Shown one piece after another: positions 3,238 through 32,719 of a stretch of 32,719 nt of DNA. This stretch comes from a virus, in the IMG/VR virus record IMGVR_UViG_3300025127_000007, positions 1-32,719 of that record. The stretch is one strand, 5' to 3'. The position numbers and the translations under genes are program-made. Numbering within the stretch: position 1 is the stretch's first letter; each line of letters begins with the position of its first letter. Below the pieces are notes generated by a model. The model was given only the letters and a program-made list of their open reading frames with translations. It had not been told where the DNA came from and made no database searches.

Positions 3238-4005
3238 CTATCCTCCGTATGAACTAGATGGGCCGCGTAGCAAAATACCTTCTTCACCAAGACCAGCCTG
3301 ACCAAATCTTGCGCCCCTTGTTCTGCGCCTATCTCTTGTGAAAGCTGTTCTGCCTCTCGTGGCAAGAGGTACGTCATCTCTCTCTGGAGTTACCTCTGGT
3401 GTAACTTCTGGTGTAATATCTGGCCTTTGTGGTTGACCCTCTGCTGTTGCCGCTGCCGTAGGTGACGCAACGCTAAAAGTTCCTGACTCTCCTCTTGCGC
3501 CAACAACTCTGCTGCTTGAATCGGTGATTGGATCGCCACCCTCTATAAGTCTATCAAGAATTGTTTTTGCAGATCTTTGACCTATAACATTTAAAACATT
3601 GAGTGCTGCGCTACCAACACCTGGCACTGACACTCTGCCTGCTGGTAACTGTCCAATGTTTGTGCGTTTTGCCAAATCCCCAAGTTGCTCTTTTGATATA
3701 TCTGTTCTGCCAGCTAGTCTTGCCGATGCCACTTGCCCAAAGCCACTTGAACCAATCGTTGCCAAAACATCTCCTGGTGCAAGACCACGTTCAGGCGCAC
3801 GCCGCATGCTTCTTTCTTCAGCAGTAAGGTTCATTCCCCCAACTGGATTTCTGCCACGTTGCTGCTGTTGTCTTACCATTGCCTGTGCGGCATCATCTCG
3901 AAAGCGTTGCCCTTGTGTGCGCCTTGGTGCGCCAGTAGCCCTTATAGGTTGTGTACCGCCTATGTTCGTAGCACCACCGCTTGTGCCTGATCCTCCACTA
4001 CCCAT
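3238..4005 (-). CDS. Gly/Arg/Pro-rich low-complexity protein, unknown function (possible virion or ejected protein)
   Basis: 255-aa ORF. N-terminus MGSGGSGTSGGATNIGG; internal ITPEVTPEVTPE repeat (about 3384..3422); C-terminal RDRRRTRGARFG; start overlaps the upstream gene by 8 nt. Confidence 0.6.
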   Translation of the reverse strand: MGSGGSGTSGGATNIGGTQPIRATGAPRRTQGQRFRDDAAQAMVRQQQQRGRNPVGGMNLTAEERSMRRAPERGLAPGDVLATIGSSGFGQVASARLAGRTDISKEQLGDLAKRTNIGQLPAGRVSVPGVGSAALNVLNVIGQRSAKTILDRLIEGGDPITDSSSRVVGARGESGTFSVASPTAAATAEGQPQRPDITPEVTPEVTPERDDVPLATRGRTAFTRDRRRTRGARFGQAGLGEEGILLRGPSSSYGG

Positions 4006-4396
4006 TATGGCTCTCCTTCAGTTTGTACCAGCCTATCTTGCCAGTTTCAGTGCGCAACCATAACGCTTTGTCATGACCGCTTTGCACCAGATGATCTCGT
4101 ATATGTCGCATCATACGCGCTATGCTACTCTTTCCTTGCAAACAAATAAAGTCTACTATCCAAACTGTGCCTCCCCCGCCATCAAACCCATCCACAGGAA
4201 ACTTATTTTCTAGCAGGTAATCTTGCACTTGCCACTCGTTTGGGAATCCCCAAGTTGCAAAGCCTTCATCCATCAGCACATACTGATCTAGGCGCATCGG
4301 TTGCTCTACAAAGTTCTCAAACTCTTCCTCCCCCCACCACTGGTGGTACTCGCTACTTTCTACCAACTCTAGTATATGCTCTCTTTCGTCCATCAT
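3998..4396 (-). CDS. HlyC/TAAT-like (RTX-toxin-activating lysine acyltransferase family) protein
   Basis: 132 aa. The segments EYHQWWG, QYVLMDEGFATWGF and GGGTVWIVDFICLQG line up with HlyC GHVSWLW, QYVLL...CSWA and GDRKWFIDWIAPFG, which contain the catalytic His/Asp dyad. ATGA overlap with the terL stop. Confidence 0.5.
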   Translation of the reverse strand: MMDEREHILELVESSEYHQWWGEEEFENFVEQPMRLDQYVLMDEGFATWGFPNEWQVQDYLLENKFPVDGFDGGGGTVWIVDFICLQGKSSIARMMRHIRDHLVQSGHDKALWLRTETGKIGWYKLKESHNG

Positions 4397-5679
4397 AGTG
4401 TAAATGGATTGTACTCATTCATCGCCATTTTCTGCGGAGGGCGAAGCACAGCTTGTCTATTCTCCAACCCAACAGCCAGATACCTAAACGCATCCGCAGA
4501 GTGACTCGTGTAATCATGCCTTGGATGATCTCTGAAAACTTTTTTGCGTTCGTCCCACTCTTGCCTGTACTGTCGTAACATCTCCAAGCCATCGTATGTT
4601 TTTTCCCTGTCAAAGAAACATTTGGGCAGCATCATGCGTGCAGCGTTGATACCATCTGCAATCTTCATCTTTGGAATAACACGAAAGCGTATGCCAAGAC
4701 TGAACGCAGTCTCTAGCCTAGACTTGCCAGAACCAAGCTCTCTTACTTCAATGTCGTGCGGAGCAAGGTGATCGCCGTAGTGGTAATCTTTCTGACGTAA
4801 TACCTCAGCGTAGTGATCCAACCCGACACCGCTGTTTTCATAGTAGTCAATAACATTAATCGAACCGCCTCTAAATACTTGCGCAAACCAAATGGCTGTT
4901 GAGTCGTTTATACCCAGATCCCATGCGGTATGCACAGGATAAGCAGGGTCATATGGAACCCTAGTAACCCTTCCGTTATCATCGGCATCAGAAAGCAGCT
5001 TTCCATAATAGGCACCTATTATAGCAGCGGTAAACGAACATTCATACTCTTGCTCGTATTGCTCTGGCGTCATCTGCGCCCTAGCCGCCTCTAGCTCTTC
5101 TTTCTTTACAAGCTCACTCTCAGATGCCTTGACTACCTTCCAGTACCATTGCTCAGAGCCTTCTTGCTCTTCAGACTTGGCCTGTTCCAATAGATCAAAA
5201 AAATGATTATGTCCCGCTGGGGTGCCTAGAAATACAGCCGCACCTTCCCTATCAGACAGGGCAGGACGTACAACCTCCCCCCACACCCTGGGATTTTGCA
5301 TGCCAAACTCATCGAATACACATAGATCAAGATAGATACCTCTCAGACTGTCTGGGTTCTCCGCTGACAATAACATCAGCCTGCCACCATTTGGAAAGTC
5401 TACACGCAACTCAGTCTCATTGAAACTAACGCCAGGTATAACAGCCGCATAATACTTTACATAATCCCAAGCTATGCGCTTGGCCTGCGTAAAAGTAGGT
5501 GCAACAAAAGCAACCCTTGGCCTTGGTAACTCACAAGTCAAAGCATGTCTGATAAGGTGATTGACTGCCCAGACCGTCTTACCAAAGCGTCTGTGCATCA
5601 CCAGTACATTCCAACGCTTCACACTCTTGTGCATTTCTGCTTGTAAGGATCTAGGCTTGTAAGGGATCTTTACCTGCAT
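4393..5679 (-). CDS. terL: Terminase large subunit
   Basis: 428 aa from the first ATG (5679; the track ORF starts at an upstream GTG), with GGGAAGG just upstream. Walker A-like HRRFGKT, Walker B-like LCVFDEFG, and C-terminal nuclease-type AWDLGINDSTAIW. TGATG overlap with terS. Confidence 0.88.
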   Translation of the reverse strand: MQVKIPYKPRSLQAEMHKSVKRWNVLVMHRRFGKTVWAVNHLIRHALTCELPRPRVAFVAPTFTQAKRIAWDYVKYYAAVIPGVSFNETELRVDFPNGGRLMLLSAENPDSLRGIYLDLCVFDEFGMQNPRVWGEVVRPALSDREGAAVFLGTPAGHNHFFDLLEQAKSEEQEGSEQWYWKVVKASESELVKKEELEAARAQMTPEQYEQEYECSFTAAIIGAYYGKLLSDADDNGRVTRVPYDPAYPVHTAWDLGINDSTAIWFAQVFRGGSINVIDYYENSGVGLDHYAEVLRQKDYHYGDHLAPHDIEVRELGSGKSRLETAFSLGIRFRVIPKMKIADGINAARMMLPKCFFDREKTYDGLEMLRQYRQEWDERKKVFRDHPRHDYTSHSADAFRYLAVGLENRQAVLRPPQKMAMNEYNPFTL

Positions 5680-6056
5680 CACCCTTCCCACATAATCTTC
5701 ACACCACCATCAGTAACCTCTACACCAGCACGATTCTTACTATCACCATACTGGTCTGGCATAACCTTGCCCGCCTTCCAACGTATATGTAAAGCATAAT
5801 CCCTTAGAACATTAGGATCATAGTTCCTCTCACCACTCAACTGATGCTGATACATAGCCTCAACATCCTCTAGTGCCTTCTCAGCACTCTGCTGTTGAGC
5901 AGTCTTGATAGCATTACTAATCTCAGGATCACTGCCCATCCTCGTATACAAAGCAGACCTAGATACACGGTTACGCTCACATGCCTTCACAAGCGTGTAA
6001 CCCTGCATCACATCAGATGCTACCCTGTCAATCTTAGCTCTGGGTATCTTAGCCAT
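5679..6056 (-). CDS. terS: Terminase small subunit (HTH-containing)
   Basis: 125 aa from ATG 6056 (acggagagaacATG). N-terminal HTH-like GYTLVKACERNRVSRSALYTRM; immediately upstream of and coupled to terL; first gene of the leftward block. Confidence 0.65.
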   Translation of the reverse strand: MAKIPRAKIDRVASDVMQGYTLVKACERNRVSRSALYTRMGSDPEISNAIKTAQQQSAEKALEDVEAMYQHQLSGERNYDPNVLRDYALHIRWKAGKVMPDQYGDSKNRAGVEVTDGGVKIMWEG

Positions 6057-6277
6057 GTTCTCTCCGTGTGTGTGAAAGTAGTAATTAACACACATACAAC
6101 GCGCGTGCGCACACAGGGGCTCGTGCCTTTGTTCTATGCCCCCCGTGGGGTCACGTTGCAGCGCTGCGCATTGCTACATTGCCGCGCGAAAGTGTCCGCG
6201 TTGTGCGTGAAATAAAATATACAACACACAATTCTACAACCACCAATCAACGCTGAATCATTGCCTGACTCACTGCC

Positions 6278-6306
6278 ACAATGTGCAACAATGTTTGACA
6301 CAATGT
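6278..6306. promoter_or_regulatory. Three ACAATGT motifs (6278, 6288, 6300) overlapping the -35 of a rightward promoter; candidate operator set
   Basis: ccACAATGTgcaACAATGTttgacACAATGTtat. The 12-mer acacaatgttat recurs at 8566..8577. Confidence 0.5.
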
Positions 6307-6323
6307 TATTAATATCACATATG
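6295..6323 (+). promoter_or_regulatory. Possible sigma70-type early promoter (weak -10)
   Basis: TTGACA at 6295..6300, a 17-nt spacer, then catatg at 6318..6323. Confidence 0.3.
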
Positions 6324-6326
6324 GGA

Positions 6327-6354
6327 TTGACAGTATAGTAACCAATGGTTATAT
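6327..6354 (+). promoter_or_regulatory. Probable sigma70-type early promoter
   Basis: TTGACA at 6327..6332, a 16-nt spacer ending in tgg (extended -10 TGn), then TTATAT at 6349..6354; about 30 nt upstream of the first rightward gene. Confidence 0.5.
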
Positions 6355-6386
6355 GTAGGTTATCAACTAAAGAAAGGATCAAACAA

Positions 6387-6560
6387 ATGATACGTTACGA
6401 AGTAAGAACACCACACAAGTCCTTCGTAGGTTGCGAGGGAACAATGGCCGAAGCAGTCGAGTATATCCAGTCATTGATTGACGCGGGCGTTGATATTCTT
6501 TCTGTTGAGTATTTTGACAGAGACGAACGGGTGGCAGCAATCAGAAACGGCGAAGTTTAA
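6387..6560 (+). CDS. Hypothetical early protein (57 aa)
   Basis: Start moved to ATG 6387 behind gaaaggatcaaacaa; MIRYEVRTPHKSFVG...; no domain recognised. Confidence 0.6.
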   Translation: MIRYEVRTPHKSFVGCEGTMAEAVEYIQSLIDAGVDILSVEYFDRDERVAAIRNGEV

Positions 6561-6568
6561 TCTTTAAC

Positions 6569-7198
6569 ATGGGGGCATCCATGGAACATTTTACACTACC
6601 ATCAGACGCAAAGCGTGGTCCTAATTGTGGGGTTACTGCTATTGCCGCAGCTACAGGCGAGAGCTTCCAGCGTGTTTGGGCATTGTGCGCAGCGCGTAGC
6701 ATCCGCAAGCGTTTTAGAGGCGGCACCGTACACAATCAGCGTGTAGAGGTCTTAGAGCATCTACAGGCAGACTTTCAACCAATACAGATGCCACGCATGA
6801 CTCTCGACAAGTTTTGCAACTGGTACGCTGAGAATGACACAACCTACATGGTCACAACGACTGGCCATGTTCAGCTTGTGCGCATTATCGACAGTGAGCC
6901 ATATGTGCTGGATCAAACAGGCTGCAAGCCACTGTCTGAGTACTGGGGCAGGCGCAAGTATATCAGCCGCGATGTACTGAAAATGGGTGAGCCAAAGCGC
7001 AAGCCAGTAGCAGCGCCACAACCAACACCACAACAACCAGCAAAGTTTTGCAAGTGTGGCGCGTCATTGCGTACAGGCTCAAATCTTTGCGCTTGTGACA
7101 AACAACCAACCCCAGGCTTTACACATACAAGCCTGTTTCCCGCTCTATTCATAGAGCAACAACCCGCGCAATCAGCGCAACAACTAAATCTATTCTAG
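6569..7198 (+). CDS. Papain-like (C39-type) cysteine peptidase-like domain + CxC..CxC zinc ribbon + Pro/Gln linker + C-terminal QLNLF
   Basis: 209 aa. Candidate nucleophile in GPNCGVTAIAAATG, His in TTTGHVQLV, then YVLDQTG; FCKCGASLRTGSNLCAC; ends ...QSAQQLNLF-stop (caa cta aat cta ttc tag). Confidence 0.5.
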   Translation: MGASMEHFTLPSDAKRGPNCGVTAIAAATGESFQRVWALCAARSIRKRFRGGTVHNQRVEVLEHLQADFQPIQMPRMTLDKFCNWYAENDTTYMVTTTGHVQLVRIIDSEPYVLDQTGCKPLSEYWGRRKYISRDVLKMGEPKRKPVAAPQPTPQQPAKFCKCGASLRTGSNLCACDKQPTPGFTHTSLFPALFIEQQPAQSAQQLNLF

Positions 7199-7212
7199 GA
7201 AGGATCAAACAA

Positions 7213-7491
7213 ATGGCTAAAGTAAGAAACATTGTTGGACGCACTGGGCGCCCTGTCGTCAATCAGTTTATCATCACAACCGCAGATGGTGAATATTTCC
7301 AATCATATGAAACGGTGATAGCGTTTAGGGAGATATCAGGCAAGGTCTGGCTGGATTGTGAGCGTTGGAACTACAGCCACACAACAGCCAAATATCGCAA
7401 TGGGTTTTTGGGAATGAACAAGGCCCAGATTGAAAAAGCTATTGATGCTGGCGAAATCAAATTGACTAACCTTAACCGTGAGAGGCAATGA
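7213..7491 (+). CDS. Hypothetical early protein (92 aa)
   Basis: ORF behind ggaaggatcaaacaa. The NQFIITTADGEYFQSYETVIAF...WNYSHTTAKYRN pattern looks like a conserved phage family of unknown function (recollection only). Confidence 0.65.
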   Translation: MAKVRNIVGRTGRPVVNQFIITTADGEYFQSYETVIAFREISGKVWLDCERWNYSHTTAKYRNGFLGMNKAQIEKAIDAGEIKLTNLNRERQ

Positions 7492-7619
7492 TGGACAGAA
7501 TAGAAATATTCAACAACGCGCTATTCCTGCTGATTATGGGCCTAGTTATCTGGGGACTTATGGGCAGCGAGGCTTGGCTTTGGCAAGTGTTCAAGTGGGC
7601 AATTAACACCTTTGCCTAA
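7488..7619 (+). CDS. Small hydrophobic (single-TM) protein, about 43 aa, not in the ORF track
   Basis: ATGATG at 7488/7491 overlaps the upstream TGA. Translates M(M)DRIEIFNNALFLLIMGLVIWGLMGSEAWLWQVFKWAINTFA, stop at 7617..7619. Confidence 0.45.
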   Translation: MMDRIEIFNNALFLLIMGLVIWGLMGSEAWLWQVFKWAINTFA

Positions 7620-7696
7620 CATAACCCTACCCATTGACGGCTAGGTGCCGCCAGTGGGCTTCAAACCGCCAGCAATGGCATAAGAAAGGATCTACA

Positions 7697-7915
7697 ATGT
7701 ACGTTGTATTTTATACAGAGAGATTACCGCATGGCGAACCGGATCAGCTTTGGGCGAATGACTTGGTCACTGGACCTGTTTACCTGCATGACCGCTGGGA
7801 AGTCTGCGAGGAAAAAGAGGAAGCGGTTAAGGTATACCGCCAGCTCATTGACAGGGACAGCACCCACAATGCAGGGATCGCACCCATCAGTGAGGAATAT
7901 TCAACAGACTGGTAA
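7697..7915 (+). CDS. Hypothetical early protein (72 aa)
   Basis: Start moved to ATG 7697 behind gaaaggatctaca; MYVVFYTERLPHGEPDQLW... Confidence 0.6.
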   Translation: MYVVFYTERLPHGEPDQLWANDLVTGPVYLHDRWEVCEEKEEAVKVYRQLIDRDSTHNAGIAPISEEYSTDW

Positions 7916-8000
7916 AAGAGAAAGGGCCAAGTCGGGGGCATCCGGCTTGACCCATGACTGGTGAAGGATCAACAAAACCAGCCATAACAGAGAGGGTAGC

Positions 8001-8195
8001 ATGACAGCAGAAGAATTTAAACAGGAAAGAAAGCGTCTAGGTTTGACTATGGTGGCTATGGCTAATCACATTGGAGTTAGCCAGCAAGCTATTTGGTACT
8101 ACGAAACTGGCAGAAGATCGGTGCCAAAACCTATTGAGCTGCTACTAGAGTCTAGGCGTGTGTATGAAAAGCAAACAGATAAAGGATCAGAGTAA
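8001..8195 (+). CDS. Cro/C1 (XRE)-type helix-turn-helix transcriptional regulator
   Basis: 64 aa; FKQERKRLGLTMVAMANHIGVSQQAIWYYETGRRSVP is a canonical XRE HTH; GAGGG upstream of the ATG. Confidence 0.8.
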   Translation: MTAEEFKQERKRLGLTMVAMANHIGVSQQAIWYYETGRRSVPKPIELLLESRRVYEKQTDKGSE

Positions 8196-8530
8196 TGCCA
8201 GCAAAGAAAAGTGAAATGCTTACTATTAAGCTAACGAAGCAAGAGTTTAGTTTGATTACAGAATGGTGCATGTACCACTTCTGGGACAAAACAAATGGCT
8301 TTCAGGACGACATAAACGTTGATGAACTTATGGGGTGGGCAACGTCTTGTCTGCTAATGGCAAGACTTAAAACCATTGCAGATGAAAACAATATCTTTTT
8401 TGGCTTAGAAAAGGATGAGATTTACAAAGAGGATGACACTGACAGGCAGAAAGTAAACTCAGTGACGCGAGCATTTGTAGATCAATATGCTGCAAACGTA
8501 GAAATGATTGCAAAAAAGAGAGAGGCGTGA
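8195..8530 (+). CDS. Hypothetical early protein (111 aa)
   Basis: TAATG overlap with the HTH gene; aaaggatcagagta upstream; no domain recognised. Confidence 0.6.
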   Translation: MPAKKSEMLTIKLTKQEFSLITEWCMYHFWDKTNGFQDDINVDELMGWATSCLLMARLKTIADENNIFFGLEKDEIYKEDDTDRQKVNSVTRAFVDQYAANVEMIAKKREA

Positions 8531-8550
8531 GCCTCTCTTAGTTTTCTCTT
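8519..8550 (+). terminator. Rho-independent terminator with GNRA loop, overlapping the stop codon of 8195..8530
   Basis: agagaggc (8519..8526) / gtga loop / gcctctct (8531..8538), followed by tagttttctctt. Confidence 0.6.
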
Positions 8551-8565
8551 GGGAGGAATATGAAA

Positions 8566-8758
8566 ACACAATGTTATAACACAATGTCTACACTTACAAT
8601 GTAGACACTTTTTTTATTTAAAAATAATAAAATGCTACGTTGTCATCACTACACTCTGCTAGCAAGTGTCTACACTTTGTGTCTGTAAACAATGTTTCAA
8701 ATATCATAGATTTTGTTGACAGTCTAGCCTGTTGCATCAATTTTTTCTCTAACAATGT
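8566..8758. promoter_or_regulatory. Second cluster of ACAATGT motifs (8568, 8581, 8596, 8689, 8752) plus GTCTACAC(T)TT repeats
   Basis: aaACACAATGTtataACACAATGTctacacttACAATGTagacac ... gtgtctacacttt ... aaACAATGTttc ... taACAATGTag. Confidence 0.45.
8585..8616 (+). terminator. Rho-independent terminator
   Basis: tgtctaca (8585..8592) / cttacaa loop / tgtagaca (8600..8607), followed by cttttttta and an AT-rich tract. Confidence 0.65.
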
Positions 8759-9116
8759 AGAACCATGTTTGAAGAGAAACAATCACAGTAGCATCTGTGG
8801 CAGTAAATTCTGGGTTTACATGAGAGAGAAACAGGCGGCACCACACATCTTGTCTGTCATACTTGTAGATCAGCACTGGCATCAGATCACCTGCTGAGTC
8901 TACCGCTTGCTGCCACCACGCGTCAGCACCGCCCACAGGACCACTAGCGTAGCGTTTACACTCTACTGACCATTGTGGAATGTAGATATCACAACCACCC
9001 TTGGTTTGATATTGAGAAAGATTGCGGCGCACGTTTGCATAGCCAAGATGGTCTTTGATCTCGTTGACACACCACCGTTCAAAAGCAGAACCCTTGTCTC
9101 TACTTTTCTTGCTCAT
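8724..9116 (-). CDS. PD-(D/E)XK nuclease, Holliday-junction-resolvase-like
   Basis: 130 aa from ATG 9116. KGSAFERWCVNEIKDHLGY...GGCDIYIPQWSVECKRY matches the Hjc-type KG..FE...D-x(n)-E-x-K arrangement. The N-terminal extension in the track overlaps the upstream gene. Confidence 0.6.
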   Translation of the reverse strand: MSKKSRDKGSAFERWCVNEIKDHLGYANVRRNLSQYQTKGGCDIYIPQWSVECKRYASGPVGGADAWWQQAVDSAGDLMPVLIYKYDRQDVWCRLFLSHVNPEFTATDATVIVSLQTWFYIVREKIDATG

Positions 9117-9402
9117 GAATACCGTAGACCATTTTGCACGTTGGACATTGTATCCTGCCATCAAGAAAGGTTTTGCAAGCAACACACATATCTGCGGCCT
9201 GGAGCCGTGCAAACCTACCGTCACCAGCCTGGATGTTGTATGACTTTACCTTTCCCAAGCCATTACATTCATCACAGTGGTCTTGTACAACCTCACCAGC
9301 CTCAAACCAGCTACGCCTGCGCACCCAGCCAGAGCCGTCACAAGTCTTGCATTTGCTCTCTGAAAAAATCATTTGGCGCAACCTCTCCATCTGTAGCCAC
9401 AA
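9100..9402 (-). CDS. DnaJ-type zinc-finger protein (four CxxC pairs)
   Basis: CKTCDGSGWV and CDECNGLGKV (CxxCxGxG twice), plus CVACK and CPTCK. Start is ambiguous (ATG at 9402, 9390 or 9372); overlaps both neighbouring genes. Confidence 0.6.
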   Translation of the reverse strand: MWLQMERLRQMIFSESKCKTCDGSGWVRRRSWFEAGEVVQDHCDECNGLGKVKSYNIQAGDGRFARLQAADMCVACKTFLDGRIQCPTCKMVYGIHEQEK

Positions 9403-9541
9403 ATATCTTGCCCATAGTTTGTGGGCTTGGACGCCTACTGCCTGACAATAATCTATTTATAGCTGCCCGACTCATGCCAGCACGCCGCGCCAGCTTGGCT
9501 TGGCTCATCTTATTTTTTTCTAAATATTCTTCCAAAGTCAT
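9338..9541 (-). CDS. Small HTH (XRE-like) DNA-binding regulator
   Basis: 67 aa from ATG 9541: MTLEEYLEKNKMSQAKLARRAGMSRAAINRLLSGSRRPSPQTMGKI. First gene of the leftward cassette, divergent from 9622..10476. Confidence 0.65.
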   Translation of the reverse strand: MTLEEYLEKNKMSQAKLARRAGMSRAAINRLLSGSRRPSPQTMGKIFVATDGEVAPNDFFREQMQDL

Positions 9542-9621
9542 ATTTTCTTGTATCACAGAGTTGACAGCCTGACAACAATTATGGTTAAAGTATGTTGACG
9601 ATACACAGAGAGTAACAGGAT
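9542..9621. promoter_or_regulatory. Divergent intergenic control region between the leftward cassette and the rightward middle genes
   Basis: TTGACA at 9561 and TTGACG at 9595; CACAGAG at 9554 and 9604; no convincing -10 elements by eye. Confidence 0.35.
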
Positions 9622-10476
9622 ATGCCACAGATACCAGAGTATAGAAAGTTTTTTGGCGCAAAGCATGACAGTGCATCAGGCGGGACACAGGAAAAGTGGG
9701 AATACGTATTGAAGATGTACGCTAGACATCTTGGCGTGTCCTTTCCAATGGCAGCTAGGCCTTGGTGTGGAATATGCGTTGAACATGGTGCATCAAGAGT
9801 TATCCTCGATGGTCAAGAGCTTCTAGCGGCTACACAAGAGGCCATGACCAAGTACAGGGATTACAGGCCGCGTGATTGGGATGACGGAAAAGACAGGGAA
9901 GAGTTTGAAGCCTTCCAAGAATACATGCCAGACATGATATTGTTTGCAGTAAACGCGCTGCAAAAGTTTTTCCAACAGGCAAACAGAGTCGAGGGCAACA
10001 AGCAAGAATGGCACAAAGAGCCTCAGATTGACGTACCAATTTTGTTGTATCGTGATTTTTTTGGCGCTGGCCTTCAAGTAGATTTGAAGTGTAAGCCACC
10101 GCTACGCAACCCAATCAAAAAAGATGGCACAAGAACCTGGCGCGTACCAAAGCCAGAGATCACCCCAACATGGCTACAGACTCAACAACAGTCTGTGTAT
10201 TGGAAAGCCAGTGGTGAGCCGCCAGCCTTGCTGTATGTGTCAGCGGCAGGCTATCACATAGCCACAGCAGAAAACTGTGAGCAACTTTCAGAGCAAAACT
10301 TAGAGCGTGCGTATCAAGAAGTTGTGCGCAGTTGGCTCATATCACAGAACTTACTCAAGGCGGCAAACGGTAACTGGCACGATTTAGCTGGTTTGGTCCA
10401 GCCAGATTTTAATGAAATAGCAAGGCGTCATGGGCCATCTATCGTAGACGTAGCTAAACAACTTTGGAGTTTCTAA
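9622..10476 (+). CDS. Possible YqaJ/lambda-Exo-like recombination exonuclease (PD-(D/E)XK)
   Basis: 284 aa, the largest rightward ORF. GAGLQVDLKCKPP resembles the YqaJ LEIKCP signature, with RDFFG upstream. Weak motif-level call. Confidence 0.35.
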   Translation: MPQIPEYRKFFGAKHDSASGGTQEKWEYVLKMYARHLGVSFPMAARPWCGICVEHGASRVILDGQELLAATQEAMTKYRDYRPRDWDDGKDREEFEAFQEYMPDMILFAVNALQKFFQQANRVEGNKQEWHKEPQIDVPILLYRDFFGAGLQVDLKCKPPLRNPIKKDGTRTWRVPKPEITPTWLQTQQQSVYWKASGEPPALLYVSAAGYHIATAENCEQLSEQNLERAYQEVVRSWLISQNLLKAANGNWHDLAGLVQPDFNEIARRHGPSIVDVAKQLWSF

Positions 10477-13292: not shown

Positions 13293-13588
13293 TATGCTTT
13301 CCCTTTCTTGGCTTTGTTTCGTTTGGAGATTGCTGCCGCCTTCTTCCTTGCGTCAGCCTTGCTGCTTGCACCCCATGCGCGGAGTGACAGTAGTAAGCGC
13401 GTTGGTTTGCCATTCTTTCTCTCTGGTCCCCTCATGTTACCCATGCGTGCTAGAAAGCTAGCCCTGCGTGGATTGTCACCAGACTTTATCGGGCGTTTCA
13501 AGTTTGCGCCCGTGGTTCTCTTGAAAAAGTCTCTGCCCTTCTGATTCAAGCCACCTTTTGGATTTTGAAATCTTTTAGCTACCATCAA
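13292..13588 (-). CDS. Basic small protein (98 aa), unknown function
   Basis: MMVAKRFQNPKGGLNQKGRDFFKRTTGANLKRPI...NPRRASFLARMG...GKPTRLLLSLRAWG; overlaps the endolysin stop by 14 nt. It resembles a conserved viral DUF family from memory (unverified). Confidence 0.65.
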   Translation of the reverse strand: MMVAKRFQNPKGGLNQKGRDFFKRTTGANLKRPIKSGDNPRRASFLARMGNMRGPERKNGKPTRLLLSLRAWGASSKADARKKAAAISKRNKAKKGKA

Positions 13589-14024
13589 TCAAACCGTGTC
13601 TGTATCCGTTCTCTCTGTCGTAAGTAAGAACTTCTTTGCGTGGATCAGGAGCGTAGCTGCAATGAATCCATCCCGTGTTACCGCCAGTATAACATTCAAG
13701 TATAAGTTGATCGAACTCTAAGTTGTCTGCAATCCATTTGGCAACAACCATGTTTGACACACCAGCTACCTCAAAGTCAGCAGCCTCACCTTTTGTATGC
13801 TGAGACTTCATTGAGCTACCAATCACAACACACAACTCTGGGCAACGGTATCCAGACGTAACTGTTACAGGGCCAAACTCATCACGCACTGGTTGCAAAA
13901 TCTTGTCACACAGATCAATAATATTATCTATCGTGTCTTGATCTGGCTCATTAGGGATACCCTTACGCTCTGCTGTTTGACTTTTGGTAAGCTCACGCAG
14001 TGTAAAGTTTTGTGACAGTCTCAT
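13575..14024 (-). CDS. Endolysin, zinc peptidase M15 family (D-Ala-D-Ala carboxypeptidase/VanY-like fold)
   Basis: 149 aa. FTLRELTKS...VTSGYRCPELCVVIGSSMKSQHTKGEAADFEV fits the Peptidase_M15_3 H/D/H zinc-site pattern. Confidence 0.85.
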   Translation of the reverse strand: MRLSQNFTLRELTKSQTAERKGIPNEPDQDTIDNIIDLCDKILQPVRDEFGPVTVTSGYRCPELCVVIGSSMKSQHTKGEAADFEVAGVSNMVVAKWIADNLEFDQLILECYTGGNTGWIHCSYAPDPRKEVLTYDRENGYRHGLIDGS

Positions 14025-31859: not shown

Positions 31860-32719
31860 TTAGTCTGGGGTTTCATCACAGAAGATTTGAACAACCTTTG
31901 ACTCTTCCATGCGCACCGCTCCGATGCTCATGCAATAGTAAACTTGGGTTGCATATCCCTTGTCAGCACGTTCATCAATGCGTGCAGCAATGTCTTTACC
32001 GACACCAAGGGTCAAACCATCCTCAGCCCATGCAAAGCATGTTCTGATGTCGTTGCTGTCTACAGACAACCTATTGGTCATGATGAACTGGAAGCCCATA
32101 AAGGTATCCACATCACCCTGTACCAGAGCTTTGACTGTGTTGAAATCCGAGCTAGTAACCTGTGTTGTGCCAAGCAAATCTTCAATCTGCTTTGGCCCTA
32201 CAGCAATGTAGCGTGGGATTGATGGGTCAACATCATTGAGGTCCATCTTACGCTTTGCTTCTGTGAGCTTGGCGATAGTCAGGCCATCGTTTGATGAGGA
32301 TGAACCAACAGAGTTGGCTGTTGCATCCAGTGTTGCACTGCCAGATCCAGTCTCACCAGTAGAGGCTGTGCCTGTGGCGGCAGTAATAATCACATCGTCC
32401 ATCGCACGACCCATAGCAGCGGCTGCTGCCTGTGCATAAGATGATGTTGGATCAATAAGCATACGCACTTTGTCCTGATCGTCGATCAGATCTGCATACT
32501 CATAATCCGCTAGGGAAAGACGCCGCCTCGCATGAGGTGTGTCCATTTGTGGTGTATCGGCGTGACGGCTGCTACGCAGGGCAGCAGTTGCGACTCCGAT
32601 TTGGTCTATGAAGGCATTTTTACCAACAACATTCTCAATTCGCACCGCATCACGCAGACGAGAACCCATCTGCTGTGATAGCATCTGCACGTTTGCAGAA
32701 TACTGTTGCACAAATGCCG
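31860..32719 (-). CDS. Major capsid protein, body and 3' end (5' end runs off the window; true start is at 146 after circularisation)
   Basis: 283 aa in the track (GTG read as M). The pattern ...GKNAFIDQIG...HARRRLSLADYEYADLIDDQDKVRMLIDP...MGRAMDDVII parallels the layout of T7 gp10-type HK97-fold capsid proteins; follows the scaffold gene. Confidence 0.8.
   Translation of the reverse strand, partial: AFVQQYSANVQMLSQQMGSRLRDAVRIENVVGKNAFIDQIGVATAALRSSRHADTPQMDTPHARRRLSLADYEYADLIDDQDKVRMLIDPTSSYAQAAAAAMGRAMDDVIITAATGTASTGETGSGSATLDATANSVGSSSSNDGLTIAKLTEAKRKMDLNDVDPSIPRYIAVGPKQIEDLLGTTQVTSSDFNTVKALVQGDVDTFMGFQFIMTNRLSVDSNDIRTCFAWAEDGLTLGVGKDIAARIDERADKGYATQVYYCMSIGAVRMEESKVVQIFCDETPD
32593..32719. 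repeat. Terminal direct repeat, copy 2 (exact duplicate of 1..127)
   Basis: Same 127-nt string as 1..127. Confidence 0.97.

Follow-up and report, generated by a model that had tools for sequence, protein, structure and literature searches.

A predicted papain-fold cysteine hydrolase with a putative clamp-binding tail in an HTVC010P-like phage

The IMG/VR virus record IMGVR_UViG_3300025127_000007 (32,719 nucleotides, analysed at full length and called the window below) carries at 6569-7198, on its plus strand, a gene whose product we believe, at slightly better than even odds, to be a two-module protein: a papain-fold cysteine hydrolase joined to a disordered tail that docks on DnaN, the beta sliding clamp of the host. 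The first interpretation of this gene, made from the letters of the DNA without database searches (the sequence-only reading), described an early papain-like peptidase and zinc-ribbon protein ending in a beta-clamp-binding type of motif. That interpretation is partly supported: the architecture and the conservation of the motif hold, and the ribbon is incidental. Here we describe the predicted fold and catalytic residues of the first module, the sequence constraint on the second, and the genomes in which the two are found together.

Results

For the fold of the N-terminal module, the predicted structure is decisive. In an AlphaFold2 (AF2) model of the full-length protein made with 28 homologues, residues 11-140 have a predicted local distance difference test score (pLDDT) above 92, and the model of the domain by itself, made with 82 diverse domain-only relatives, reaches a pLDDT of 95.7 and a predicted template modelling score (pTM) of 0.90. 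Nearly all of the top 30 Foldseek matches in the PDB are clan-CA cysteine peptidases, headed by the C39 peptidase LahT150 (6mpz; template modelling (TM) scores 0.59/0.59, E 1.3e-3) together with PCAT1 (TMq 0.60) and the ComA peptidase domain (0.53/0.60); staphopains, UfSP, Josephin, ZUFSP and the leader protease of foot-and-mouth disease virus come after these. Compared with predicted structures of viral proteins, the domain is matched best by uncharacterised phage proteins (from phages of Sphingomonas, Acidovorax, Sinorhizobium and Pseudomonas), and the next ranks are taken by viral papain-like proteases (torovirus PLP) and by herpesvirus deubiquitinases (DUBs). The apo form of Yersinia YopQ, a type III secretion regulator (PDB 8brf), matches the domain as well as C39 does (TM ~0.58).

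Searches with the sequence of the window protein returned a sub-threshold Peptidase_C36 match only in Pfam (E 0.15), phrog_3754, a family of unknown function, as the only PHROGs match, no defence-system match in PADLOC, and only spurious fucosyltransferase matches when a profile was run against the PDB sequences. The papain-like N-terminal fold proposed in the sequence-only reading is recovered in the model, with the Cys/His pair placed to fit, and a significant profile match was not obtained.

The likeness to C39 peptidases, the best structural match, extends over the whole domain of ~140 residues at a TM of ~0.6. The two are of equal size and have their Cys, His and Asp in the same order and at similar spacing (80 residues from Cys to His, against 74 in LahT150, and 15 from His to Asp, against 16), and the local motifs xxCGxxA, HhhhV and xD-x are similar. 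The phage protein differs from C39 in having no Gln at position -6 from the nucleophile, and in carrying an invariant Gln after the Asp, where C39 has Pro. The setting differs as well: C39 enzymes are leader peptidases of bacteriocin/PCAT ABC exporters, whereas the phage protein is cytoplasmic and belongs to a presumably early operon, and no ABC transporter, fused or adjacent, was found in the complete genome or in related loci. A double-glycine-leader substrate was sought among the adjacent small open reading frames (ORFs), and this candidate was rejected since none has such a leader. Because the sequence and profile similarity is not significant and the Gln at -6 is missing, we dropped the idea of filing the domain as C39. 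As modelled, it is a member of the papain-like clan, and of an uncharacterised family to which C39 peptidases come closest in structure.

UfSP, Josephin, ZUFSP and a herpesvirus tegument DUB recur as structural neighbours at lower TM (0.35-0.5), and deconjugases of ubiquitin-like proteins (Ubl) cut after Gly-Gly, as C39 peptidases do. In the phage, however, we identified neither a ubiquitin-like substrate nor a system of conjugation, and there is no sequence similarity to the Ubl deconjugases. In phages that carry tailed homologues (loci L013-L081), three large ORFs match the FCCH domain of ubiquitin E1 (PF16190, best E 1e-13); these are probably structural beta-barrel modules, of note beside a DUB-like peptidase fold.

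The residues expected of a papain-fold enzyme are strongly conserved. Of 173 relatives, 170 have Cys20 and every one has His100, Asp115 and Gln116; Gly51 is essentially invariant in the same set, and Cys, His and Asp are all invariant in the alignment of 82 sequences. In the AF2 model Cys20 is the first residue of helix 20-29, His100 opens strand 100-107 and Asp115 closes the adjacent strand 110-115. The Cys...His...Asp order on which the sequence-only reading had based its assignment is thus that of a conserved set which is placed to fit catalysis in the model, and the motifs it quoted all lie in the translation where it had put them. The sole local match given by hhalign sets PNCGV on the catalytic xECGA of C39, and is not significant. 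A Gln preceding the nucleophile and lining the oxyanion hole is canonical in C39 and papain, and in the C39 sequences that we recovered the Gln at -6 is invariant; at -7 (residue 13) the relatives of the phage protein have Asp or Gly. The invariant Gln116 might substitute for the oxyanion Gln.

The second module, residues 141-209, is modelled as disordered: averaged over blocks of ten residues the pLDDT is 45-60, and there is almost no secondary structure. The Pro/Gln linker noted in the sequence-only reading is plain in the composition of this tail of 69 residues (10 Pro, 9 Gln), which is also Ala-rich. Both the length and the sequence of the linker differ among close homologues, and only two blocks are fixed, [ST]LFP[SA]LF and a terminal QL[SNATP]LF. 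In the window protein the tail ends, as had been read, with ...AQSAQQLNLF and then TAG. QLNLF is the only occurrence of QL[SDNAGTP]LF in the six-frame translation of the window, at a per-position probability of ~6e-6, and a terminal motif of the QLxLF kind is found on no other ORF of at least 50 residues in the window and ten related loci. UmuC uses QLNLF and Pol II QLGLF (PMC3716654). The parallel with UmuC drawn in the sequence-only reading therefore stands for the pentapeptide itself and not for its terminal location, the motif being internal in UmuC (residues 357-361; PMC3716654).

At the DNA level the last five codons occur in 17 distinct versions, in which Gln is written CAA or CAG, each Leu by four codons and Phe as TTT or TTC; the third position of the motif varies among S, N, A, T, M and L. 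This pattern reflects purifying selection on exactly the positions that are constrained in the clamp consensus QL[SD]LF. Conservation of the C-terminal pentapeptide in homologues is borne out by the synonymous codon turnover, by the divergence of its flanks and by its convergent acquisition. The same domain bears at least five unrelated types of tail whose ends read Q-L-x-L-F or Q-L-x-[LF]-x-[LF]: ...LFPSLF...QLxLF; ...SSLFCEPHQL[TS]LF; ...STLFPHLF..NNHQLALF; and ...SSLFCEPHQLTLF, with ...NARQL[ML]LF lacking an upstream motif, and further ends of the forms ...PAQLQLSL, ...[GT]QL[ST]FNF and ...KQLPLFQEAA. The forms ...PAQLQLSL and ...[GT]QL[ST]FNF resemble the QLxLxL hexapeptide class of the clamp literature. 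The motif closes 46 of the 93 distinct extensions that are 12 residues or longer, compared with a mean of 0.04 and a maximum of 2 in composition-preserving shuffles.

The upstream block, SLFPALF in the window protein, is kept in all type-A tails while its flanks vary, and is a candidate for a second, degenerate clamp-binding motif or for a motif that binds another partner. It resembles the FGLPLFD motif of the type-B tails, in which [FI]GLPLFD stands near the terminus (FGLPLFD followed by 0-8 residues); these make up a further 27 extensions. [FI]GLPLFD in turn resembles both the upstream LFPSLF block and the QLPLF of two homologues (P0007 and P0070). A literature search for a GLPLF motif returned nothing relevant.

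Tails have been gained, lost or swapped repeatedly: a neighbour-joining tree of the domain has tailed proteins scattered among untailed ones, and one homologue, P0012, pairs the N-terminal domain of another subclade with a tail of the window type. The Cys-rich insertion in the linker is part of the same picture. This segment of 24 residues, QQPAKFCKCGASLRTGSNLCACDK, contains CKCG-x10-CAC (residues 161-176, nucleotides 7049-7096), in which four Cys form two CxC knuckles (C161-K-C163 and C174-A-C176). The CxC-x10-CxC ribbon of the sequence-only reading is in this respect present as described; it is not a feature of the family. Only three of 28 close homologues have it (the window protein, P0001 and P0012), it is missing from the tails of P0002 and P0021 although these are nearly identical in all other respects, and it is modelled at a pLDDT of 54-58. 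A zinc ribbon as a family feature was rejected on the count and on the low confidence of the model. The insertion may be a zinc-binding knuckle, accessory and specific to one lineage. QPTP repeats bracket it, and its presence or absence between these repeats, together with the P0012 fusion, suggests recombination or slippage in the linker and the swapping of modules between phages.

The domain is far more widespread than the tail. An exhaustive profile search (E <= 1e-3) yielded 610 clusters at 50% identity, a family that is absent from Pfam; most members are stand-alone domains of 130-150 residues and a minority have C-terminal extensions. The homologues found by tblastn are domain-only proteins of Roseobacter phage CRP-902 and Sphingomonas phages Kharn and Lucius; CRP-902 gp28 and Kharn product 37 are untailed, and their phages are annotated with a helicase or primase/helicase. 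A scan of a genome collection found three prophage copies only, in Devosia and Aminobacter, all untailed. Because the stand-alone domain is widespread, the core job of the domain is not clamp-specific and the tail is an add-on; the core role of the enzyme evidently does not require the clamp. In P0051 an HTH_3 domain replaces the tail at the C-terminus, a single case that hints that the family is sometimes directed to DNA. Two other C-terminal modules take the place of the clamp-type tail, one of ~75 residues with GGRxxDLxWD and one of ~70-90 residues with W.VPY (P0039/P0061/P0113/P0129 and P0068/P0093/P0118/P0171), and neither matches Pfam.

The window is a complete assembly of 32,592 bp, circular or circularly permuted, because its bases 1-127 are identical to 32593-32719. 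Its large terminase subunit (TerL) is ~51% identical to that of HTVC010P-type pelagiphages, and the phage is an HTVC010P-like podovirus. Phages of this type share the layout of early and late genes on opposite strands, and are reported to be without a DNA or RNA polymerase (PMC8477408). In the window, the minus strand encodes terS, terL, portal, capsid, tail tube, internal virion proteins, tail fibre and endolysin, and the plus strand from 6345 to ~13155 holds small ORFs, two helix-turn-helix (HTH) proteins and several proteins without a family. Since a megablast of 5600-8600 against 50,697 phage genomes found no match, the phage is without a close sequenced relative. The absence of a polymerase, primase and helicase of its own, stated in the sequence-only reading, holds for this complete genome at the sensitivity of Pfam and PHROGs, where no family of these kinds was matched by any sizeable ORF; early proteins of 199, 217 and 284 residues were left without a family.

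We also asked which replication families accompany tailed and untailed members, using ORFs of at least 200 residues in flanks of up to 10 kb per locus. The tailed set (19 loci and three window ORFs, 96 proteins) contains no polymerase, helicase or primase family, and gave structural proteins, putative initiators of the HTH_36 type and Sak/RecT annealases only. The untailed set (12 loci, 73 proteins) gave ResIII (4), Helicase_C (4), AAA_25 (3), Prim-Pol (3), DNA_pol_A (1) and PriCT_2 (1). Tailed genes of either type stand first or second in an operon that diverges from terS or its neighbours, and the phages concerned are podoviruses whose capsid and portal genes are T7-like. This fits a tail that would be useful where the phage must work with the host replisome, and because the loci are clustered and the flanks no longer than 10 kb we regard the link as supportive, not conclusive.

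The gene itself is the second of the rightward operon, which diverges from the small-terminase gene, and not the first, because an ORF of 71 residues precedes it. The ORF exists as the sequence-only reading described it, with the difference that its true start is probably the second ATG, at 6581, which would give a protein of 205 residues (we keep the numbering of 209 throughout). That start is likelier than 6569 because a Shine-Dalgarno-like GGGGG run lies 5 nucleotides 5' of it and because the metagenomic homologue P0001 (95% identity) begins at the equivalent Met. Since a scan of 5900-7600 for promoters and terminators found nothing exceeding shuffle expectation, the label "early" rests on synteny with the HTVC010P-type phages. 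The coordinates of the features are collected in Table 1.

Table 1. Positions in the window of the gene, of its predicted domains and motifs, and of other genes mentioned in the text.
Feature	Position	Strand	Basis or remark
Whole gene, 209 aa + TAG	6569..7198	+	ORF confirmed real
Predicted papain-like (clan CA, C39-like) cysteine peptidase domain, residues 11-140	6599..6988	+	AF2, Foldseek
GPNCGVTAIAAATG, residues 17-30	6617-6658	+	motif location
Codon of predicted nucleophile Cys20	6626..6628	+	motif PNCGV; conserved Cys
TTTGHVQLV, residues 96-104	6854-6880	+	motif location
Codon of predicted general base His100	6866..6868	+	motif TTGHVQ; conserved His
YVLDQTG, residues 112-118	6902-6922	+	motif location
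Codons of Asp115-Gln116, predicted third triad member and invariant Gln	6911..6916	+	both conserved
Disordered Pro/Gln-rich linker, residues 141-187	6989..7129	+	pLDDT, composition
Insertion with CxC-x10-CxC, residues 155-178	7031..7102	+	alignment
Upstream motif SLFPALF	7130..7150	+	consensus [ST]LFP[SA]LF
C-terminal pentapeptide QLNLF, residues 205-209, TAG directly after	7181..7195	+	beta-clamp consensus QL[SD]LF / QLxLF
132-aa ORF between terL and portal	3998-4396	-	weak HlyC match, E 6e-4
Small-terminase gene (terS)	5679-6095	-	divergent from rightward operon
71-aa ORF, first of rightward operon	6345-6560	+	ORF list
92-aa gene, directly downstream of the peptidase gene	7213-7491	+	phrog_21575 (PHROGs)
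PDDEXK_15 nuclease	8724-9224	-	embedded in plus-strand early region
HTH_3 (Cro/CI-type) protein	9338-9688	-	embedded in plus-strand early region
284-aa protein	9622-10476	+	conserved in 15 related loci; no Pfam, PHROG or PADLOC match
Endolysin	13575-14024	-	phrog_894, E 1e-44

Discussion

We propose that the gene product, made from the rightward and presumably early operon, works as a tethered enzyme. Its first module (residues ~11-140) would be an active papain-fold cysteine hydrolase with a Cys20-His100-Asp115 triad assisted by Gln116, most likely an endopeptidase or isopeptidase because its structural neighbours are C39, UfSP and Josephin. Its second module (residues 141-209) would be a disordered tether whose terminal QLNLF enters the hydrophobic cleft of host DnaN, with the upstream SLFPALF possibly making a second and weaker contact with the clamp. 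Having no recognisable replicase of its own, the phage would have to use the host replisome. What we infer is that the tail binds the clamp, that the enzyme is active, and what it acts on and where: the tail would concentrate the peptidase on DNA-loaded clamps, at replication forks or on freshly replicated DNA, where a leash of ~65 residues would let the enzyme sweep the clamp face and the nearby DNA and act on a clamp client or on another fork-associated or DNA-proximal protein. Occupancy of the clamp by the tail would also compete with the clamp clients of the host. Candidates for the substrate include a defence factor coupled to replication, or a clamp client that holds back phage replication or competes with it. 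The substrate could lie outside the replisome, since many untailed members work in phages that bring their own replication genes. The more ambitious version of this proposal, that a C39-like peptidase seated on DnaN cleaves or deconjugates a clamp-bound or fork-associated host protein and is the first clamp-tethered protease of the bacterial world, is a possibility that we consider doubtful as yet.

The docking device can easily be compared with those of other mobile elements. The MuC/Mor protein of phage Mu has two clamp-binding motifs, needed for late transcription and responsible for its toxicity (PMC12867686), TrfA of RK2 binds the clamp through QLSLF (PMC8034659), and the transposases of insertion sequences (IS) are beta-clamp clients (PMC4549789). 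The phage protein is like MuC, TrfA and the IS transposases in being the product of a mobile element with a QLxLF-type peptide in a terminal or flexible region, and the two motifs of MuC are paralleled by the two LF motifs of the type-A tail. Tn7 TnsE is a further clamp binder encoded by a mobile element. These proteins are a transcription factor, an initiator and transposases, and none of MuC, TrfA and the IS transposases is a peptidase or a protein-modifying enzyme. The sequence-only reading was aware of no clamp-tethered papain-like enzyme, and in our literature search, likewise, no peptidase of bacteria or phages came up as a client of the beta clamp.

A closer analogy of function is offered by SPRTN and FAM111A, proteases that are brought to forks by PCNA-interacting peptide (PIP) boxes and there remove protein obstacles (PMC7067828). 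Like them, the phage protein combines a protease domain, a flexible region and a peptide of the kind that binds a sliding clamp. The folds are unrelated, SPRTN being a metalloprotease and FAM111A a trypsin-like serine protease whereas the phage domain is papain-like, and the two are cellular genome-maintenance factors that bind PCNA by the PIP box, where the phage protein carries QLNLF. SPRTN also carries a ubiquitin-binding zinc finger (UBZ), of which the CxC...CxC insertion is a loose echo. Against the likeness to these two, the phage protein has no apparent DNA-binding domain and no apparent role in the repair of DNA-protein crosslinks (DPC).

Several observations weigh against a clamp-docked hydrolase. 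As regards the enzyme, the Foldseek E-values are modest (~1e-3), though the list of matches is uniform; the Pfam C39 profile (PF03412) is matched below threshold in only two of 82 relatives (best E 0.024); hhalign against the LahT150 and PCAT1 sequences is not significant (probability 1.1%); and there is no oxyanion-hole Gln six residues N-terminal to Cys20, the residue there being Ala14. As regards the tail, many members of the family have none, and occur in phages that encode a helicase, primase or DNA polymerase themselves. The tailed loci come mostly from one phage supergroup and are phylogenetically clustered, so that they provide few independent data points for a link between the tail and the lack of a replicase, and no host is identified for the tailed forms because all the copies in the genome collection are untailed. 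By our estimate, the ~4-12 residues between the two motifs of type-A tails look too short to span the two clefts of a clamp dimer. Finally, the FGLPLFD of type-B tails has no Gln, is not terminal, and may bind something else.

Could the tail, and not the enzyme, be what matters? In the first of the alternatives, the tail would be mainly a clamp blocker that fills the DnaN clefts and so shuts off or rewires host replication, repair or the regulatory inactivation of DnaA (RIDA), and the peptidase would have an unrelated job, the one that it does in its untailed relatives, so that the fusion would only ensure joint expression of two early functions. The evidence for the QLxLF motif (its uniqueness, its conservation and the convergent tails) serves this idea equally, two LF-containing motifs per tail would favour avid occupancy, the peptidase domain stands alone in most of the family, and overexpression of MuC is lethal through clamp binding and disturbs RIDA (PMC12867686). 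The same catalytic domain has, however, repeatedly gained clamp-type tails with different linkers, which suggests that the tethering of this enzyme, and not of any carrier, was selected; moreover, the catalytic residues are invariant in the tailed members, and an outright block of the clamp would be self-defeating for a phage that relies on the host replisome. We therefore regard a pure blocker as unlikely.

It is a little less likely still that QLxLF, with or without LFPSLF and FGLPLFD, is a linear motif for some other partner (another host hub, a phage protein, a protease adaptor or a degron) and that its likeness to the clamp motif is coincidental. The type-B tails just mentioned, the SLFPALF block, to which no partner is assigned, and the lack of literature found on a GLPLF motif are in keeping with such a partner. 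What speaks for the clamp is that the constraint at the C-terminus (Q, L, free, L, F) matches the published consensus position by position, that independent tails use the hexapeptide forms QLQLSL and QLSFNF, that the motif is on no other ORF of these phages and that it is associated with phages without a replicase.

The domain might also be a catalytically inert binding module, making the protein an adaptor to the clamp. The inactive C39-like domain of HlyB is indeed among the structural matches, and the phage domain lacks the canonical oxyanion Gln. Inert derivatives, that of HlyB among them, have reportedly lost the Cys, whereas Cys20 and its three partner residues are retained in the relatives in the numbers given above, and we give this alternative very little weight. 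The least probable is that the domain is a cell-wall amidase or endopeptidase (NlpC/P60, CHAP) or another enzyme of lysis or entry: CHAP and NlpC/P60 share the papain-like Cys-His fold and one amidase (4h4j) appears low in the Foldseek list, but the top neighbours are C39, staphopain, UfSP and Josephin, nothing stands out by eye as an N-terminal signal peptide or a transmembrane segment (no predictor was run), a cytoplasmic clamp-type tail would be senseless on a periplasmic enzyme, and the cell-wall reading was rejected on these neighbours, on the position of the gene in the rightward regulatory/replication operon instead of a lysis or virion module, and on the presence of a separate endolysin gene.

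The beta clamp, a target for antibiotics, is the central hub on which proteins of bacterial replication and repair dock; the clients known so far are polymerases, repair factors, regulators and transposases, joined very recently by a phage transcription factor. If the clamp-docked hydrolase that we propose is real, a protease would be added to these clients as a new functional class, and phages would have their own counterpart of the PCNA-tethered proteases SPRTN and FAM111A, and with it a new way of taking over the replisome. Such a protein would also show how control of the host replisome is gained by very small phages that lack replication enzymes. In our judgement the catalytic class is what is new and the docking device is known, the two being joined in a new biological setting. 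It would further provide a handle on a large family of phage enzymes (the 610 clusters described above), and the convergent tails offer a natural catalogue of candidate clamp-binding peptides from uncultured hosts.

Other features of the phage genome

Directly downstream of the peptidase gene lies a gene of phrog_21575, which is found 3' of the peptidase gene in 13 related loci, so that the two form a conserved pair; in loci L003 and L004 the products encoded at this position match DUF7249 and DUF8033. Further along the plus-strand early region, the embedded PDDEXK_15 and HTH_3 genes face the ORF for the 284-residue protein, an arrangement that is repeated in L003 and L004, and this stretch is possibly a regulatory switch or an origin region. 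The 284-residue protein is a candidate replication initiator for this phage without a replicase, because the type-B relatives have an HTH_36 protein at the same place. On the minus strand, the ORF with the weak HlyC match has a syntenic gene in L003 (3941-4354) that matches PF02794; HlyC belongs to the family of lysine acyltransferases that act on RTX (repeats-in-toxin) toxins, an unusual enzyme for a packaging or head module.

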